Source of the DNA: an uncultured Hyphomicrobiales bacterium
Lineage (GTDB): Bacteria; Bacteroidota; Ignavibacteria; Kapaibacteriales; UBA2268
Length of the DNA: 64,000 bases
Assembly (NCBI GenBank): GCA_964637845.1
Contig: CAZWXI010000002.1
Location: 28,667 to 92,666 of the forward strand
Direction: 5' to 3'
Both the position numbers and the translations under genes were made by a program. The notes under the pieces were generated by a model. The model searched no databases, was not told the DNA's origin, and was given only the letters and a program-made list of their open reading frames with translations. Position 1 is the stretch's first letter, and each line of letters begins with the position of its first letter. Shown in pieces: positions 29,043 through 38,407 of this stretch.

Positions 29043-30039
29043 AAATGTCTCTATTTAATGAGTTAGTCAATATCAAATTAAGAAAAACGGGCATCCATAG
29101 TCTGAGTTCTATCAAATATCCCCCAACAAAGCATACTAAGAAATAGGGCAAAGAAAACAGTAAACTATAAATCGCTATATTTGTTTGCATTTGAGAATTG
29201 AGCCTTGAAATCAACAAAAAACAAACTCCTACAAGAAATGTCAAACCAGCATAATTATATATACTGAATAGATTTGATACTACCGTTACTTCTTGAATGG
29301 TGGATTGTTCGAAACCAAGTATGAGTCTTAGTAGAAAATAAGTAATCAACCAAACGCATATACTTATTATTAAATCTCGTTGAGTATTTCTATCATGAAA
29401 TTTTCCACTTGCGATTATTATCGCACCGTGTACAGCTAATATCAATGCGGAGGATTCGCGATTAGTAGTAGCGATAATCAGTATGATTAAATAGGTAAAA
29501 AAGGAATGGTTATTAGCTTTCTTTAAATGTCGAATCAAAAAATTAACAGCAAGTATGTGCAAAAAATAAGATATGTTGTCGTATGGTACCACTACGAATT
29601 GCGTGATAGCTAATAATGAGTTATAAATCAAGATTTCATTGACTGGGTGTGAGTTATCGCGACTATCATTAGTTTTAGAAATGAAATACAATAAACCTAT
29701 TGATGAAAGCACCGTAAAAATAGTATTAAGCATGAAGTATGACATATATACATGCGATTCAGCTTCGAAAGTATTTGTTATTACGTGGATTTTTTGGACG
29801 GTGTCAAAATCAGCCCTAAAATCTCTCAGCAATTCAAACAAAAATATCATTAAGTATTTGCTCAAAATACGATACTTGTATATGCCTGATTCATACTGCT
29901 CGATATAGCCTGCTTCCGTGAAGCTTCCACTTGTATATGCAGTTGTAAAATAAAAACTGATAATTATTTGAAAAATCAACGGTATGACAATACATAAAGT
30001 CGCAAAAATCAGAATTTTTCTGATTATGTGCATCTTCAT
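29029..30039 (-). CDS. Polytopic integral membrane protein of unknown function (336 aa)
   Basis: About nine hydrophobic helices by eye. The start overlaps the stop of the upstream S8 peptidase gene (ATGA at 30036-30039). No motif recognised. Confidence 0.5.
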   Translation of the reverse strand: MKMHIIRKILIFATLCIVIPLIFQIIISFYFTTAYTSGSFTEAGYIEQYESGIYKYRILSKYLMIFLFELLRDFRADFDTVQKIHVITNTFEAESHVYMSYFMLNTIFTVLSSIGLLYFISKTNDSRDNSHPVNEILIYNSLLAITQFVVVPYDNISYFLHILAVNFLIRHLKKANNHSFFTYLIILIIATTNRESSALILAVHGAIIIASGKFHDRNTQRDLIISICVWLITYFLLRLILGFEQSTIQEVTVVSNLFSIYNYAGLTFLVGVCFLLISRLNSQMQTNIAIYSLLFSLPYFLVCFVGGYLIELRLWMPVFLNLILTNSLNRDIFTVN

Positions 30040-33000
30040 GGTAACACAACAAATTTGTTTTTTCGTGTGAAAACTTCACGCCCGTCTGAGTTGGCTCCAC
30101 TGACTTCATAAGTATAAATACCCGGTGGTACCAAATTACCTATTTTGTCTCTGCCATCCCATTCCACACCTCCATTGCCGTTATTTTCCTGCAAACTAAT
30201 TATTTCAACTCCGTCTAAACTCATGATTTTCACAGTCGCGTAATTCGTAAGATTTGCAAAAAAGATTTTTGGCTCCTCGGATAACACAATTGGATGTGGA
30301 AATACGTAAGTATCTCTGAGGTCATCAGCCGATATAACAAAGCCCAAAGTATTGCCGGCGCCTTTTGTTATCGGTTTCCCTTCGGATGAAATTACATTGT
30401 AAGCACTGATTGTATAATCAAATCCTCGAGCACCTTTTTCACGCAAACTTTGACTAATGTTAAGGAGTACTTTGGTTGAGTCTGTTATACTCCTTTCTGC
30501 GTAAAGGACTTCACCGAAAGGTCTCATAACGTAATTATCCCTATTTGATGCAGTTCCGTTTTCGACTGGCTCTGAATACTCAAGCTCAAGTAATGTTGGG
30601 GCAAGGAATTGCAATTTAACGAGGAAAATTTCATCTGGTAGAACGCCTTCAGAGAATCTGAAATTTGCCGAATCCTTAGATACTAAGTTCCCGAATCTAT
30701 CACGGAAACTGTTTATAACTAATTTATATTCTACATCAATTTCAAAATCTTCGGAGAATGTTATAATTACAGTTGAATCATATTGCGTAATTGAACTCGA
30801 ACTCGTAGCGATGTAATTATTATTGTCATAAAGTAAAAATACACCCGCCGGGATATAATTATGAGGTAAAAATCCGCTAAATGCGACTTTCAGAGAATTA
30901 CTTGCTACATTAATGATACTGATGAATTTTGCAGGAGCAACCGTAATTATACTCGTAATATCAGTAAAATCACTAAAGTTGTCCTTTAATTTTGAATTAT
31001 AACTTCGCATGACGAATTCATATTCGCTGTTCGGTGTCATGTCATCAATTATTAGTTCATTACTGTCGGATTCAGCGATTAATATTGCGTCAATCCCGTT
31101 GTCAGTACGAACTAATTGATATATCAAGTACTCTTCGGCATCCGGCATCTTATCCCATGTGAGTTTTCCTCGGGTGTCAGTAACAGCCTCTCCGCGGAAA
31201 TTAGTTGGTACTCGAGGTCCTGCAAAATCTTTCCTGTATTCGAAAAAGCGCATTGAATTGAAAGTGGAAAAACCCAATTCATTCATCCCGTTACCATCAA
31301 TATCGGCAATGAGAGCAGAATTAGATAAGGTTGCGGGGTACCACCAAAATTTGTCAAAAGTCTTCGTTTTTTTATTGTATTTATAAACATACAAGTTCGG
31401 GAATGGCGAAAAGACAATTTCATCTCCGGGATCACCGTCCAAATCACCTGCTGCAACGCCGTTTCTATATCCGAATAATGTCCTGACGAAACCTTGTTTG
31501 ACGCCATAAAAGTGTTCTTTCCAAATCTCTTTGTAATTATTAAATCCATCTGATTTTAATACTCTCGCTGTCCAAATATTTGACGGAGCTTCATTGTTGG
31601 AGAATAAAACTTCGGATTCGGCAAACATGTGTATTATTTCTTTAACACCGTCACCCTCAATGTCTGCCGAGGTCAAAAACTGATTTGAATTGGAACGTTT
31701 CGAGGAATCTGCCCATTCAAGGGTGAATTTACCGTCTCTATACTCATAAATCATGACGTTGCTATTCGTGTTCACTATACACAGTTCAGTGTTGCCGTCA
31801 CCGTCTAAATCACCAATTGCCGAACCACGTGTTATCGGAACATTAAATAAATTATTCGGTAATTCGGCTGTGGTTTTTACTCTGTATTCGCCATTAGCGT
31901 ATTCGTATGCGATATAGTGTCTGTTCTGAACTTCATATCTATAGCCGATTAGATTAGCTTTACCGGTACCGTCTAAATCAAATATTTGTTCACCCCAAAG
32001 TGTTGTTCCGGGCTGATTTCTGAAAATTTGTTTTGCAAACGGGCTGTCTCCTCGAAAGTTACCTTGCTCGGCGACAGAATTGAATTGCGCAGTGGCAAAG
32101 ATTTCAGGTATTCCATCACCATTTGAATCACCCATACCAACGGGGATCCATGCCGCTGCGGATGTATCACGTAATTTCAATTCACCGTTCTGATATTGAT
32201 ATACCTTTGTGGTGCCGATATTCAAACTTGACAAATCATTTACTACAAATACCGGCTTACCGTCGCCATATAAATCATGATAATTGTTATTGATATAAGC
32301 ACGATGAATTGCGTACGGTTTGGGGTCAAAATTCGATGTTGTCCATACATCATTTTCAATCTCGAATGAAAATCTATGACTTACTAAATCTCCACCGTTA
32401 GTCATGACAGTTGCTATTCCCGCATATTTCAGCCCGGGACGGACATCTGTTATTTCTACGATATGGAATTGGCTTTTGTGACGCGATTGTTTTAGAAAAT
32501 GATAATCTTCATCGACCTCAGACTTATATTTTACAGTCATTGTCCCTTTTTTATTGGTCTTAGCGGCCATTAATATGATTCTTTTATCATTTGAAAATGC
32601 ATGTACGATATTGAAATATTCAAACCTTGCTGAATCTGCTTCATTACTAATATTTATAGTTATTCTTCGCTCGATAGTTTTTTTATTTTTTAATGTCACT
32701 TCCAGTGAGATGATATATTTTCCGCTTGTTAATTCGGAAATATCAACTGTTCCTAACTTGGCGTTAATCACTTGATTTTGATAAACATCGCTTTCTAACC
32801 AACTTTCGGGCAATACTCCTTTGCCGATTTTAAGTTTATAGCTATCAAATAATGGCGTGGCTACCGACCCCAAAATATCAATACTTGGAGTTCTTCTGAC
32901 GAAGAATTCTGCTTCATTCAGTGGTTGCGAAATGCTGAAAACAGATGCTCCGGCATAATTTACTGCTTCGTAAGCATCTAATATTCCCGCTCCATAGAAA

Positions 33001-34385
33001 ACATCCCATCCCTCTGCACCTGTATCTGTTGCGGTTGCTGTCAATATTCCATGAATCTCTTCAGGTTTGAGAGTGGGGTCGATTTCAAATAGCATTGCTA
33101 CTACTGCGGAAACATGAGGTGCGGCTATTGATGTACCTGAAACCAAAGCGTATTTAGCACCTGTTACTGTTGTCATTACTTGCTCTCCGGGAGCAGTCAA
33201 ATCAGTAAATGATCCGTAATTGCTTCTGCCGTATCTGCCTCCGCTCGAATTCGTTCCGCCAATATTAATTACCTCGGGATATATTGAAGGGTAATGTTCT
33301 CCGAACCAACCCGTATTCCCAGCTGATGTAATCATAACGCACCCAGCCGCATAAGCGAACTTTATTGCGTCGTACATAATTGGTGATTCATATCTTTCAC
33401 CAAAACTAAAATTCAATACTTTTGCTCCATTCATAACTGCATAGACTATCGCTTTGGCTATATCATCGGCTTCGGCGTTTCCCGATATGTCAAATGCTTT
33501 TGATGTCAACACCTTTGCCCCCGGTGCTACTGATGCAATACCGATATTATTGTTTGTTGTGGCTGAAATCACGCCCGATACACTAGTTCCATGGTCACCT
33601 TCGTCCTCTGGAATAGGGTCGGGGTCACGATAATCACCAAAGTTGACCACGTCTTGGTCAACGAAATCAAATCCGATTACATCGTCAATAAATCCGTTAC
33701 CATCATTGTCAATGCCGTCCAAATCTCCCGAAACGCCGTTTCTGATTTCTTTGGCGTTCCAAGCGTCAAACCTACCGTTACCGTTGATGTCTTCGGCTGT
33801 ATTTATCCACAATCCGCCGATTAGGTCTGGATGCTCGAAATCAATTCCGGTGTCAATTACACCTACTATGACTCCCTTGCCTGTGGCTTTTTCCCATGCT
33901 TTTAATGCGTTTACCTGCTTCAAATTCCATTGTGTATCAAATAATGAGTCATTCGTGCGGTTGCTTCTATTAATTTTATATATGTGATTTGGTGTTATGT
34001 TGACAAATGATATATCGTTTTCAAACAATTTTTGAAGACTGTCAATCTCTAAATCTGATTTTATTTCGTAATAATTTCCAAGCATATCCAAACGTATAAG
34101 TGCATCACGGCTTAAAAACTGCGATGAGGATTTGTTTGTGCTAAGTGTGCTCTCTGAAAATACATTATGGACTTGAATATTCAATTCGTTTATGAAAGTC
34201 TTTTGCTTTAAATCGCCCATGTACTTGAGAATGTAGCTTTTATTAGCTTGGGAGTAAGCACTTATCGAGAAAAAAGACGAAATCAAATGTGCGGATAAAA
34301 TTAATACTATACTTTTATTCAGTTGACTTAACATCATTACCTTTAAAATAATTGAGTGCCAATACATAGACGTAATGGCACTCAA
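30036..34385 (-). CDS. Secreted subtilisin-like (S8) serine peptidase with FG-GAP/VCBS calcium-loop repeats, Fn3-like and Ig-like domains and a T9SS C-terminal sorting domain
   Basis: Triad contexts VGVIDTGIDFEHPDL, HGTSVSGVISA, GTSIAAPHVSA. Six D.DGDG-type loops (GDSNGDGIPEI, FDLDGTGKANL, GDLDGDGNTEL, ADIEGDGVKEI, GDLDGDPGDEI, ADIDGNGMNEL). FlgD-Ig-like tail VEWDGRDKIGNLVPPGIYTYEV. The likely true start is an internal Met before the signal peptide MLSQLNKSIVLILSAHLISSFFSISAYSQA (about 34334). Confidence 0.85.
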   Translation of the reverse strand: MSAITSMYWHSIILKVMMLSQLNKSIVLILSAHLISSFFSISAYSQANKSYILKYMGDLKQKTFINELNIQVHNVFSESTLSTNKSSSQFLSRDALIRLDMLGNYYEIKSDLEIDSLQKLFENDISFVNITPNHIYKINRSNRTNDSLFDTQWNLKQVNALKAWEKATGKGVIVGVIDTGIDFEHPDLIGGLWINTAEDINGNGRFDAWNAKEIRNGVSGDLDGIDNDGNGFIDDVIGFDFVDQDVVNFGDYRDPDPIPEDEGDHGTSVSGVISATTNNNIGIASVAPGAKVLTSKAFDISGNAEADDIAKAIVYAVMNGAKVLNFSFGERYESPIMYDAIKFAYAAGCVMITSAGNTGWFGEHYPSIYPEVINIGGTNSSGGRYGRSNYGSFTDLTAPGEQVMTTVTGAKYALVSGTSIAAPHVSAVVAMLFEIDPTLKPEEIHGILTATATDTGAEGWDVFYGAGILDAYEAVNYAGASVFSISQPLNEAEFFVRRTPSIDILGSVATPLFDSYKLKIGKGVLPESWLESDVYQNQVINAKLGTVDISELTSGKYIISLEVTLKNKKTIERRITINISNEADSARFEYFNIVHAFSNDKRIILMAAKTNKKGTMTVKYKSEVDEDYHFLKQSRHKSQFHIVEITDVRPGLKYAGIATVMTNGGDLVSHRFSFEIENDVWTTSNFDPKPYAIHRAYINNNYHDLYGDGKPVFVVNDLSSLNIGTTKVYQYQNGELKLRDTSAAAWIPVGMGDSNGDGIPEIFATAQFNSVAEQGNFRGDSPFAKQIFRNQPGTTLWGEQIFDLDGTGKANLIGYRYEVQNRHYIAYEYANGEYRVKTTAELPNNLFNVPITRGSAIGDLDGDGNTELCIVNTNSNVMIYEYRDGKFTLEWADSSKRSNSNQFLTSADIEGDGVKEIIHMFAESEVLFSNNEAPSNIWTARVLKSDGFNNYKEIWKEHFYGVKQGFVRTLFGYRNGVAAGDLDGDPGDEIVFSPFPNLYVYKYNKKTKTFDKFWWYPATLSNSALIADIDGNGMNELGFSTFNSMRFFEYRKDFAGPRVPTNFRGEAVTDTRGKLTWDKMPDAEEYLIYQLVRTDNGIDAILIAESDSNELIIDDMTPNSEYEFVMRSYNSKLKDNFSDFTDITSIITVAPAKFISIINVASNSLKVAFSGFLPHNYIPAGVFLLYDNNNYIATSSSSITQYDSTVIITFSEDFEIDVEYKLVINSFRDRFGNLVSKDSANFRFSEGVLPDEIFLVKLQFLAPTLLELEYSEPVENGTASNRDNYVMRPFGEVLYAERSITDSTKVLLNISQSLREKGARGFDYTISAYNVISSEGKPITKGAGNTLGFVISADDLRDTYVFPHPIVLSEEPKIFFANLTNYATVKIMSLDGVEIISLQENNGNGGVEWDGRDKIGNLVPPGIYTYEVSGANSDGREVFTRKNKFVVLP

Positions 34386-34437
34386 ATCTTATATTGAACT
34401 TTTAGAATTTATTGATTCTAAGTTTAGTATTTAAACT

Positions 34438-36432
34438 TTATTTACTGTATAATGTTTTACTAATCGTTATATTTTCGGCACAATCAAGTTCTTGTACGAA
34501 TTCAATTGTTTTCAAGCCGGATTTACTGACGACTATTACATATTCACCCTTACAGATTTTTTCCCCAGTTGAAACTTTGCCCGACTTAGTCTCATACTGG
34601 TAAATAACTTTACCGTTTCGTCTCATTTGAATTTTTGCTCCATGTACCTCAGAACCATTTCCATCCAAAATTTCAAAGTTAATATTATTATCGCAGCACG
34701 GTTCCGTCGTTTTCTTGGGTTCTAATTTGAATTCACGAGCAACGGGTTTGTCGCAATTTTCAATGTAAACATAATCTTCTAGAACATTAAACTCACCATG
34801 AGCTATGCGGACCCAGTATTTGCGGAGGCATAATTTCTCGAAAACTACTTCGCCCGAACTGTTTGTTTTTAGCATGTTTGTATATTGATTGTCGGCTCTT
34901 GTGATTTTTACTTCGGCATTGGCAATTGGATTATTTGTTGATTTATCAGTAACGATAATCTGCAATTCTCCGCAGCAGTCGCCGCTTTGCTCTTTAGACA
35001 AAGTTTTAGTATAGCTGATGTTCTCTTTACAATCGAAAGATTGTTGAAACTCAATTGCTTTGTAGCCCTCTTTTTTAACCACAACGCCGTATTTTCCTTT
35101 ACAAATCTCTTCAAATTTTACCTTACCATCGGCATTTGTTTTACCTTCCTTTACAACTTTTCCATTCAAATAAAGCAGTACGATTGCATCTTTGATGGGA
35201 TTTTTATCATCATCTTGAATAATCAATTCTAACGAATTATCGCAGCAGTCGCCGCTTTGCTCTTTAGACAAAGTTTTAGTATAGCTGATGTTCTCTTTAC
35301 AATCGAAAGATTGTTGAAACTCAATTGCTTTGTAGCCCTCTTTTTTAACCACAACGCCGTATTTTCCTTTACAAATCTCTTCAAATTTTACCTTACCATC
35401 GGCATTTGTTTTACCTTCCTTTACAACTTTTCCATTCAAATAAAGCAGTACGATTGCATCTTTGATGGGATTTTTATCATCATCTTGAACAATCAATTCT
35501 AACGAATTATCGCAGCAGTCGCCGCTTTGCTCTTTAACTAATACTTTTTCGTGAGAGACGACTTCTTCGCATTCGAATGTGACGGTATATTCAATAATTT
35601 TGAACCCCTGCTTCTTGATGGCAACACCGTATTTGCCTTTGCATAGTTCGCTGAAAGATACTTTTCCGTCATTATTAGTATATCCGTCGTGGACTAATTT
35701 ACCATCACGATATAAAAGTACTTTTGTTTCGGCAATCGGTTTATTATCTTCATCCATTACCAATAAATTCAGAGTATTGTTACAACATTCTTCCGCTTCT
35801 TTTTTCTTTAATTTGATAGTCAAGTCTTTTGGGTCACAATTTTCCACGTAAAAATAATCCTCTTTGACTTGGTAACCTTCAAGAGCAACTCTCAGCCAAT
35901 ATTTACCTTTGCATAATTCCTCAAATTTCACACTACCATTGGCATTTGTATGCTTGATTTCAGAGAATTCATCGTTCTTGGTTATTTTAACTTCTACATT
36001 TTCTAATGGTTCATCGGATTCGTAATCAAGAACCGTGATATTTATAATGCCGCAACAACTGTCTTTTTCCATTAATTTGAAAACAACGGGACTTTTGCCT
36101 TTTTCAGCTTTGTGATTCTCATAAAATTCGGCAAAATTGCCTGTTTGTGTTGCAAAAATTTCGTGAGTAACACGATATCTAAGACCCTCCTTGTTGATTG
36201 GAATTGACTTCAACGTGAACATGCCTTTGTCGTTGGTGATATCTGAGGTAATTAGCTCTGTCTTGGCATCAAACAATTCAACTTTGGCATCTTTGACGGG
36301 CTTTTCCGCAGAATCAAAAACATATCCCGTAAAATCTTCTGTGGTTGCGGGGCTTGTCGAATTATCACTACATGATGATACGACAAAAATTGCTAATAAT
36401 GATAGTAAAAAAGTATATCTTAAAGTTTTCAT
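34438..36432 (-). CDS. Lipoprotein: N-terminal CarboxypepD_reg-like domain plus six ~90-aa Cys-Cys-initiated beta-sandwich-like modules
   Basis: Lipobox LLAIFVVSSC. Repeated blocks CC..(L/I)...(V/I).D......P(I/L)..A.V.......NG.V.F..(L/I)CKGKY...(V/I)...G(Y/F)........(F/E)(D/N)C. Confidence 0.7.
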   Translation of the reverse strand: MKTLRYTFLLSLLAIFVVSSCSDNSTSPATTEDFTGYVFDSAEKPVKDAKVELFDAKTELITSDITNDKGMFTLKSIPINKEGLRYRVTHEIFATQTGNFAEFYENHKAEKGKSPVVFKLMEKDSCCGIINITVLDYESDEPLENVEVKITKNDEFSEIKHTNANGSVKFEELCKGKYWLRVALEGYQVKEDYFYVENCDPKDLTIKLKKKEAEECCNNTLNLLVMDEDNKPIAETKVLLYRDGKLVHDGYTNNDGKVSFSELCKGKYGVAIKKQGFKIIEYTVTFECEEVVSHEKVLVKEQSGDCCDNSLELIVQDDDKNPIKDAIVLLYLNGKVVKEGKTNADGKVKFEEICKGKYGVVVKKEGYKAIEFQQSFDCKENISYTKTLSKEQSGDCCDNSLELIIQDDDKNPIKDAIVLLYLNGKVVKEGKTNADGKVKFEEICKGKYGVVVKKEGYKAIEFQQSFDCKENISYTKTLSKEQSGDCCGELQIIVTDKSTNNPIANAEVKITRADNQYTNMLKTNSSGEVVFEKLCLRKYWVRIAHGEFNVLEDYVYIENCDKPVAREFKLEPKKTTEPCCDNNINFEILDGNGSEVHGAKIQMRRNGKVIYQYETKSGKVSTGEKICKGEYVIVVSKSGLKTIEFVQELDCAENITISKTLYSK
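34971..35536. repeat. Near-perfect 270-bp in-frame tandem duplication (2 full copies plus 26 nt) inside the lipoprotein gene
   Basis: 34971-35240 and 35241-35510 are identical except T at 35220 versus C at 35490. 35511-35536 repeats the first 26 nt again. The antisense track ORFs 34987..35232 and 35257..35502 translate identically. Confidence 0.95.
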
Positions 36433-36520
36433 CTAAAACTCCCAAAAAAAGTGTAAATATTTGTTTCTTTATTAACACAATAATTGAAAAAAGATTACAC
36501 ATTATGAGTAAAAATTAATT

Positions 36521-38407
36521 TTACTCCTCAATAACTTCATAAATTTCTTCCAAAATAATCTCTTCAAGCATATCGTCGGTTACTTCCGGTCTGTTTGTAA
36601 TAGCCATCAAATTGAGTTGCTCGGGATTTTCATATAACTCGGGATTAAAAAATGCTTTCAACAGTTTGGCTGCAATCGGTGCTGCTATAGCTCCTCCAAA
36701 ACCCGCATTTTCGACAAACACACACATGGCGATTTGAGGGTCATTTTTAGGGGCGAAACAAACGAACCAAGCATGGTCTTTCCCCTGAGGATTCTGAGCA
36801 GTGCCGGTTTTTCCGCAAACTTCAACATCCGATATTCGTACTGATGCTGCTGTACCACCGGAGACATTGACGACATCAGACATACCATTTTTAATTACGT
36901 TTAAAATCCGCTCGTCGATAGGTATTTTTGTAGCATAATTCTCGAGTGGTTCGAGTTTGTTTGTTAAATTATTTCGAATATGTGTTACTACTCGTGGTCT
37001 GTAATAATATCCACCGTTAGCTATAGATGCTGTATAAGCTGCCATTTGCAATGGTGTTATCAAAATTTCACCTTGCCCGATGCCGTAATTTATCATGCGT
37101 CCCGTGAACGGAATTTTTCCGAACCGTTTCGTCAACCAATCTCGAGTCGGGATTAAACCAGATCTCTCATGCGGTAAATCAATACCTGTCTTGTAGCCAA
37201 AATTGAAGAGATTAGTATATTTTTCAAACAAATCAATTCCGAGTTTCATGCCCAATGTGTAAAAATACGTGTTGCAGGATGTTTGTATAGCTCTTCGGGC
37301 GTTTATATTACCGTGAGTTCCGTGACATTTCCAGAATCTACCACCGTAATTTAAGCCGCCGCTACAATGAATCGTAGTGTTTTCATCTATGATACCTTCC
37401 TGCAAAGCGGCGATTGCTATCAACATCTTCCATGTCGAACCCGGTGGATATTGCGATTGTATCGCCCGGTTGAGCATAGGCGATGCCGGGTCATTCATTA
37501 AACTGTTATAAAGACTTGCGGAAATTTTCCCGCTGAAATCTCTCGGGTCATAATCTGGTTTACTGACCATAGCCAGTACTGAACCATTGCCCGGGTCAAG
37601 TGCTACAATTGCTCCACGTCTATCTTTAAGGAGTTTTTCTGCATGTTCTTGCAGACGAATGTCAATACCTAAATATACATCAAAACCATTTTTAGAAGAA
37701 ATATCGCTTCTTCCGTTATCGAAACTCGAAACTTTTTGACCGAATTTATTCACGGTAACAAACTGCAAACCCTCTCTACCACGCAGATCGTCGTCATAAG
37801 TTAGCTCTATTCCCGATTGACCAATTTGGTCTCCTTGATATAGGAACGGTGTTCTTGCCAATTGCTCTTTGGATATCTCACGAGTATATCCGAGTACATG
37901 AGCCATATTTCCTTCAAATTCATATAAACGTTTAGAGTCTATCATAATCTCAACACCAGACAAATGGTCGCTATACTCCTCTATCAATGAGACGATTCTA
38001 AAATCTGCATCGCGATGTATCTTGATAGGTACAAATTTGGAGAATCCTTTGTTGGCATCTAATAATTTAATTATTTCAAGAGAATCAATGCCCAAAATTG
38101 AGCATAATAATGGAATTGCATTACGATGAAAGTCATTAGGCGTTAGTATTACCGAAAAAGAGGGCTCATTATGGACAAGCATATTACCATTTCTGTCAAA
38201 TACATTTCCTCGGAAAGGTTCAATTCTTACTGTTTTAATGGCTTGAGCTTCACTGTCAGAACGATATTTGTGACCTTCAACGACTTGTAGTTGAGCAAGT
38301 CGTCCGACAAACACAAGGAATACAAAAACAACGATTATTTTGAGGATTCTTCCTTTTTTCTGAACTCCCGGCGATGTACTATCGCCAAATCTAATATCAA
38401 TTGCCAT
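36521..38407 (-). CDS. mrdA: Penicillin-binding protein 2 (elongasome transpeptidase)
   Basis: N-terminal TM then RLAQLQVVEGHKYRSDSEAQAIK..RIEPFRGNVFDRNG. Active-site motifs PGSTWK (SxxK), SCN (SxN) and KTGTAQ (KTG). Acidic C-terminal tail. Confidence 0.9.
   Translation of the reverse strand: MAIDIRFGDSTSPGVQKKGRILKIIVVFVFLVFVGRLAQLQVVEGHKYRSDSEAQAIKTVRIEPFRGNVFDRNGNMLVHNEPSFSVILTPNDFHRNAIPLLCSILGIDSLEIIKLLDANKGFSKFVPIKIHRDADFRIVSLIEEYSDHLSGVEIMIDSKRLYEFEGNMAHVLGYTREISKEQLARTPFLYQGDQIGQSGIELTYDDDLRGREGLQFVTVNKFGQKVSSFDNGRSDISSKNGFDVYLGIDIRLQEHAEKLLKDRRGAIVALDPGNGSVLAMVSKPDYDPRDFSGKISASLYNSLMNDPASPMLNRAIQSQYPPGSTWKMLIAIAALQEGIIDENTTIHCSGGLNYGGRFWKCHGTHGNINARRAIQTSCNTYFYTLGMKLGIDLFEKYTNLFNFGYKTGIDLPHERSGLIPTRDWLTKRFGKIPFTGRMINYGIGQGEILITPLQMAAYTASIANGGYYYRPRVVTHIRNNLTNKLEPLENYATKIPIDERILNVIKNGMSDVVNVSGGTAASVRISDVEVCGKTGTAQNPQGKDHAWFVCFAPKNDPQIAMCVFVENAGFGGAIAAPIAAKLLKAFFNPELYENPEQLNLMAITNRPEVTDDMLEEIILEEIYEVIEE

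Follow-up and report, generated by a model that had tools for sequence, protein, structure and literature searches.

A probable recent in-frame duplication of one β-sandwich module in a Kapabacteria envelope lipoprotein gene, likely seeded by a 26-nt linker homology

The window, a 64-kb stretch of DNA, comes from a genome bin of a Kapabacteria lineage (198 contigs, N50 of 27.7 kb, 38% GC, 12 runs of N). On its minus strand a lipoprotein gene, P0001, lies between a penicillin-binding protein gene and a peptidase gene, and an almost perfect tandem repeat occupies the middle of its coding sequence. The features of the locus are as follows.

30036–34367, minus strand: 1443-aa S8 peptidase with FG-GAP repeats (Pfam PF00082, PF13517), downstream neighbour
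34438–36432, minus strand: lipoprotein gene P0001, 664 aa, from the open reading frame and its translation
34971–35240, minus strand: repeat copy, second in gene order (module 4), residues 398–487, LELIIQ with Ile405, plus-strand T at 35220
35241–35510, minus strand: repeat copy, first in gene order (module 3), residues 308–397, LELIVQ with Val315, plus-strand C at 35490
35511–35536, minus strand: 26-nt linker homology at the end of module 2, encoding KEQSGDCC
36370–36432, minus strand: signal peptide and lipobox (MKTLRYTFLLSLLAIFVVSS-C21), read from the translation
36521–38407, minus strand: class B penicillin-binding protein (PBP2-like), upstream neighbour, with PBP_dimer and Transpeptidase Pfam domains on orthologous genes

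P0001 consists of an N-terminal domain (residues 1–125) followed by six modules of about 90 aa (86–93 residues). Each module opens with a Cys-Cys pair, at residues 126, 216, 306, 396, 486 and 579, and carries two further conserved cysteines, giving a CC...C...C pattern. The N-terminus has the features of a lipoprotein signal, with a positive n-region, a hydrophobic h-region and the lipobox Cys21, which is followed by SDNSTSP; the motif LFVSC(S/N)DNSSSP is kept in the orthologues P0002, P0003 and P0004. P0001 is thus probably lipidated at Cys21 and would reside in the envelope or at the surface, surface exposure being an assumption. Pfam CarboxypepD_reg (PF13620) matched P0001 at 179.9 bits against a cut-off of 32.3, over six stretches, and the prealbumin-like families SdrD_B, SpaA and bMG3 overlapped these stretches.

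An AlphaFold2 model built with 13 homologues showed seven separate β-sandwich domains (mean pLDDT 82, pTM 0.28). All seven are all-β, with pLDDT values of 80–95 within domains, and both repeat copies fold as separate β-sandwiches. Each repeat is therefore predicted to have the seven-stranded, prealbumin-like sandwich of CarboxypepD_reg proteins, and the architecture is modeled as beads on a flexible string. The best Foldseek matches were 6fwv (a TIE protein), 4oq1, 3kpt, 5a42 and SdrD, all from CnaB/MG-type arrays, with pilins and α-2-macroglobulins among the matches. A search of solved structures by sequence returned no match, and no NCBIfam model scored above any cut-off. P0001 shares the fold and the beads-on-a-string layout with CnaB, SdrD B, pilin and α-2-macroglobulin MG-type arrays, but its four cysteines per module are not common to those families.

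Two more specific identities were considered for P0001 and rejected. As an MSCRAMM it scored 30 bits against the 2500 of the NCBIfam SdrD model and 15.9 against the 1700 of SdrC. As a type IX secretion (T9SS) cargo it reached 16.4 bits against the 23 of TIGR04183, and the match was internal (residues 407–457), not C-terminal. An LPXTG motif was sought and is absent from the protein, the C-terminus of which reads ISKTLYSK, and neither Rib nor G5 is among the Pfam families listed for it. Our claim for P0001 goes no further than a rod-like envelope lipoprotein stabilised by disulfides, which could be either periplasmic or outward-facing.

The sequence-only reading had described a 270-bp tandem repeat with a single mismatch, and direct comparison confirmed this. 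The copies at 34971–35240 and 35241–35510 are the same at 269 of 270 positions, differing only in the T at 35220 and the C at 35490, which specify Ile and Val. At an offset of 270, identity runs through 34971–35219 (249 nt) and 35221–35266 (46 nt), so that 296 nt are repeated and the whole repeat amounts to two 270-nt units plus the 26 nt of 35511–35536. Tandem Repeats Finder reported a period of 270, 2.1 copies, 99% matches and a score of 1125; this is the only array within the whole window to score above 100. The junction between the units can be spelled ...GAATTAT / CGCAGCAG...TTTAGACAAAG or, alternatively, …CAATTCTAACGAATTAT / CGCAGCAGTCGCCGCTTTGCTCTTTAGACAAAG…, the slash marking the boundary between unit end and unit start.

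The 26-mer at 35511–35536 is identical to those at 35241–35266 and 34971–34996, and in gene orientation the linkers that close modules 2, 3 and 4 all read TAAAGAGCAAAGCGGCGACTGCTGCG (KEQSGDCC). Beyond this perfect run, identity to module 2 drops abruptly to 57%, a background against which a perfect 26-mer would arise at any one place with P of about 4e-7. The 26 nt had been taken as the start of a third, otherwise diverged unit; in a repeat search the third register (35511–35780) was only 60% identical overall. The claim that the other modules are far more diverged holds: modules 3 and 4 share 99.6% of their DNA, whereas every other pair of modules in the gene shares 50–63%. Each unit comprises exactly 90 codons, and the reading frame across 34438–36432 stays open. 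The proposal that each copy encodes exactly one module needs a correction of phase. A module's worth of sequence was indeed added in frame, but the unit as drawn starts just past one Cys-Cys and ends at the next, and so does not run from the first to the last residue of a module.

Two 81-aa open reading frames lie antisense to the repeat (34987–35232 and 35257–35502, plus strand). They are not evidence of genes: a single spurious frame was doubled along with the repeat, which is the only reason for their listing.

Relatives were drawn from three species representatives of the same genus and from an additional species to which the S8 neighbour led. Their orthologues (P0002, P0003, P0004 and the gene on contig L025; 750, 750, 747 and 750 aa), annotated only as 'hypothetical protein' or 'transthyretin-like', have seven CC modules and share with P0001 the N-terminal domain, the lipobox, the CC-module design and the site between PBP2 and the S8 peptidase. 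P0001 differs in lacking m7, in having one m2/m3-type module fewer and in having its m4-type module doubled. In a module tree, m1, m5 and m6 of the window gene pair with their counterparts and m7 is missing from P0001; the tree also marks the central modules m2–m4 as the unstable part of the gene. Module counts in the orthologues had been proposed as a check, and none of the four contains a near-identical pair; each has a single module at the position of the repeat. Their closest pair, m2/m3, is about 71% identical in DNA; in one species the closest pair, m2/m4, reaches 86%. As the genus orthologues lack the duplicate, the duplication is probably lineage-specific and young, or else its copies were homogenised very recently, in keeping with the earlier suggestion of a very recent duplication or conversion.

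Across the wider family, the number of CC modules ranges from 4 to 11. P0009 and P0010, relatives from ENA metagenomes, carry a tandem duplication of two modules (about 180 aa), with 90–92% aa identity for m2/m4 and 87% for m3/m5. Amino acid identity is 86% for m2/m4 of P0004 and 70% for m4/m5 of P0007. These comparisons show repeated gain, loss and replacement of modules, and by the same sequence evidence the duplication in P0001 is the most recent among such recurring events in the family. In the HGW-Ignavibacteriae-1 orthologue (L021:5010–7253), module 4 shows 85.6% DNA identity to module 2, to which it is not adjacent, and only 59% to module 4 of the sister species, and its likeness to module 2 is greater over the first 170 nt. 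The pattern resembles replacement of module 4 by module-2-like sequence through gene conversion.

Our preferred interpretation, to which we give a probability of about 0.8, is that module 3 was recently duplicated in tandem and in frame to yield the present modules 3 and 4, through slippage or unequal exchange between copies of the 26-nt linker. A simple tandem duplication yields exactly two copies of its unit; the 296 nt repeated at an offset of 270 thus imply that the ancestral unit was already flanked by the 26-mer. Pre-existing flanking repeats of this kind are characteristic of slippage or unequal exchange acting on short direct repeats, and 26 nt is near the lower length limit at which homologous recombination works efficiently in Escherichia coli. 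The ancestor would have carried the linker (KEQSGDCC) at the ends of modules 2 and 3, 270 nt apart, and replication slippage or unequal sister-strand exchange between the 26-mers would have inserted the second unit. One nonsynonymous substitution (Val/Ile) would have followed, unless gene conversion keeps the copies alike. The product would be a stalk longer by one β-sandwich, and the gene would now hold 296 nt of near-perfect homology, making expansion or contraction by one unit likely.

The sequence data are compatible with both a recent duplication and an older one homogenised by conversion. In the latter case, the two copies would predate the split from the closest relatives and would have been kept near-identical by concerted evolution. 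Some support comes from a contig of a lineage about 81% identical in DNA (L022, SRR20682006), which stops 30 nt past the first Cys codon of a module-3-like unit, as a k=31 graph would where a sequence has two upstream contexts. The overwritten module 4 of HGW-Ignavibacteriae-1 has the look of a conversion tract, and the 26-nt identity that reaches into the module 2 linker could mark the edge of such a tract in P0001. However, the L022 break can have other causes, and L023, of the same lineage, breaks elsewhere; moreover, each genus orthologue has only one module here, and no second copy was actually seen in any relative. For the L022 lineage we also looked for the remaining, downstream half of the gene. 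Searching with a fragment gave one distant match only, the S8 peptidase led to a 72% relative belonging to a sister species, and the clusters of MurB and of a 336-aa protein contained no other members. Concerted evolution of an old pair is thus an alternative that we consider unlikely, and recent duplication remains the preferred reading.

Whether the repeat is real or an artefact was approached through contigs of a second assembly, Logan, which are built from a k=31 graph. Two contigs of run SRR5011273 end within the repeat.

35000, unstranded: end of Logan contig L037 (SRR5011273), which covers 29267–35000 at 100% identity
35507, unstranded: end of Logan contig L036 (SRR5011273), which covers 35507–37293 at 100% identity

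A k=31 contig that enters a sequence with two contexts ends k−1, or 30, nt inside it. The end of L036 lies exactly this far in from the right edge of the repeat (35536), and the end of L037 equally far in from the left edge (34971). A single copy flanked by the 26-nt repeats contains no repeated 30-mer and would be assembled straight through at k=31; the breaks inside both edges therefore mean that the unit junction must be present in the reads of SRR5011273. The genome bin and these contigs may share a sequencing run, in which case the contigs are independent of the bin in algorithm only, not in data. The copy number of the 270-nt unit is at least two, and the same Logan graph is compatible with extra T-type units or with a mixture of one-copy and two-copy cells.

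A longer array, of which the assembly shows only the shortest, two-copy path through three or more units, has a small but real chance of being the true structure. Units that follow a junction would all be T-type and indistinguishable to short reads, assemblers walk a simple loop the minimum number of times, and the family reaches 11 modules. As indirect evidence against this, neighbouring species keep stable 750-aa genes in four samples. The four complete copies of the sister-species gene, one from each of four JGI samples, are identical, so no length variation is seen where the perfect repeat is absent.

An assembly artefact, with one genomic unit or a mis-joined contig and the T/C difference a strain polymorphism, could be argued from the sequence being part of a metagenome bin that is scaffolded (198 contigs with 12 N runs), from a 249-nt perfect stretch longer than usual short-read k-mers, which would have faced the assembler with a loop, and from the known association of tandem repeats with assembly error (PMC6868369), but we hold it to be highly improbable given that L036 and L037, from a different assembler, break k−1 nt inside both edges, that no Ns lie near the repeat, that the unit is exactly 90 codons with an intact reading frame and that the junction sits at a 26-nt homology, as that of a biological event would. 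The single copy against which the sequence-only reading had guarded is likewise made unlikely by these breaks, and a mis-join or scaffolding artefact at the repeat is very unlikely. The bin contains other resolved long repeats, which indicates that its assembler was able to resolve such structures, and no orphan contig carrying the repeat unit was found elsewhere in it. The Val and Ile forms of 98 aa and a piece of 82 aa, used to look for an internal collapsed repeat contig, matched nothing on record. The JGI metagenomes gave no conspecific contig by protein or by 25 nt of the 26-mer linker, the exact P0001 protein was found on no other contig and its 90% cluster has one member; accordingly, the JGI, exact-protein and cluster look-ups provided no conspecific contig crossing the repeat. 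The 90% cluster of the PBP2 neighbour includes members from Logan assemblies.

The annotated length of 664 aa is a minimum, and copy number matters before the protein is used in comparisons. The locus offers a clean, datable example of how a Kapabacteria lipoprotein family gains modules singly, probably through a 26-nt linker homology. In-frame domain duplication and instability in rod-like envelope proteins are already well established, and in this sense the event is ordinary and raises no new question. Identical tandem domains with strain-variable copy number are known from the Gram-positive proteins α C/Rib of group B streptococci, SasG/Aap with their G5-E domains, Esp and Bap. P0001 resembles α C/Rib and SasG/Aap in having near-identical in-frame DNA repeats that each encode one folded, β-rich domain of a rod-like envelope protein, and in an inter-unit homology that makes gain or loss of whole units likely. 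It differs in having only two identical units, in being anchored by a lipoprotein Cys in a diderm rather than by LPXTG, and in consisting of CarboxypepD_reg rather than Rib or G5-E domains. The likeness lies in repeat structure; strain-variable copy number is a feature of those systems. With 296 nt of homology in place, P0001 would be expected to gain or lose a unit much more often than before, an expectation drawn from tandem repeats in general (for example PMC3899988 and PMC6868369).

Within the genus, the gene order is Wzz, Wzy-like, PBP2, lipoprotein, S8 peptidase, membrane protein and MurB. The start of the S8 peptidase at 34367 agrees with the sequence on record. Adjacency of PBP2 and the lipoprotein is conserved in the genus and in three other genera, and adjacency of the lipoprotein and the S8 peptidase within the genus only. 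Identity to the genus orthologues is 50–54% for the lipoprotein, 82% for PBP2 and 71% for the S8 peptidase; by this measure the lipoprotein evolves markedly faster than its flanking genes. One reading of this neighbourhood would make the lipoprotein a length-setting envelope stalk that works with PBP2, with module gain and loss at the linkers retuning its length between lineages and perhaps between cells. It might be an outer-membrane-anchored partner spanning the periplasm, or a surface spacer. The linkage to PBP2 in four genera and the recurrent module turnover (4–11 modules) are observed; the proposed role and any variation within a population would be a long shot.

The stretch between the PBP2 and lipoprotein genes (36433–36520, minus strand), aligned with L022–L024, contains a block, GTGTAATCTTTTTTCA, unchanged across four lineages whose coding DNA is only 78–81% identical. 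The block may be the promoter or a regulatory site of the lipoprotein gene. A promoter and terminator scan of 34200–36700 gave nothing better than shuffled sequences.

At the other end of the gene, only about 50–70 nt (the 34386–34437 region) separate the P0001 stop from the S8 gene, and so no remnant of m7 is left. Several other sister-species contigs end within the last 150–365 nt before the S8 gene, in or just after the final module of the lipoprotein. On another contig (L028:258–322, JGI 3300034245), a 65-nt inverted segment splits the sister-species gene into calls of 111 and 273 aa; the inversion is probably an assembly chimera. A literature search on Kapabacteria lipoproteins and on the run identifier returned nothing usable.

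Outside the window, the same genome holds a second recent in-frame tandem duplication, on contig C98 (3439–6797; L038:940–4298). Its two copies of 1668 nt are 99.76% identical and lie 1692 nt apart from start to start, in an open reading frame of 1255 aa whose C-terminus carries a T9SS sorting domain (Por_Secre_tail, 31.3 bits).
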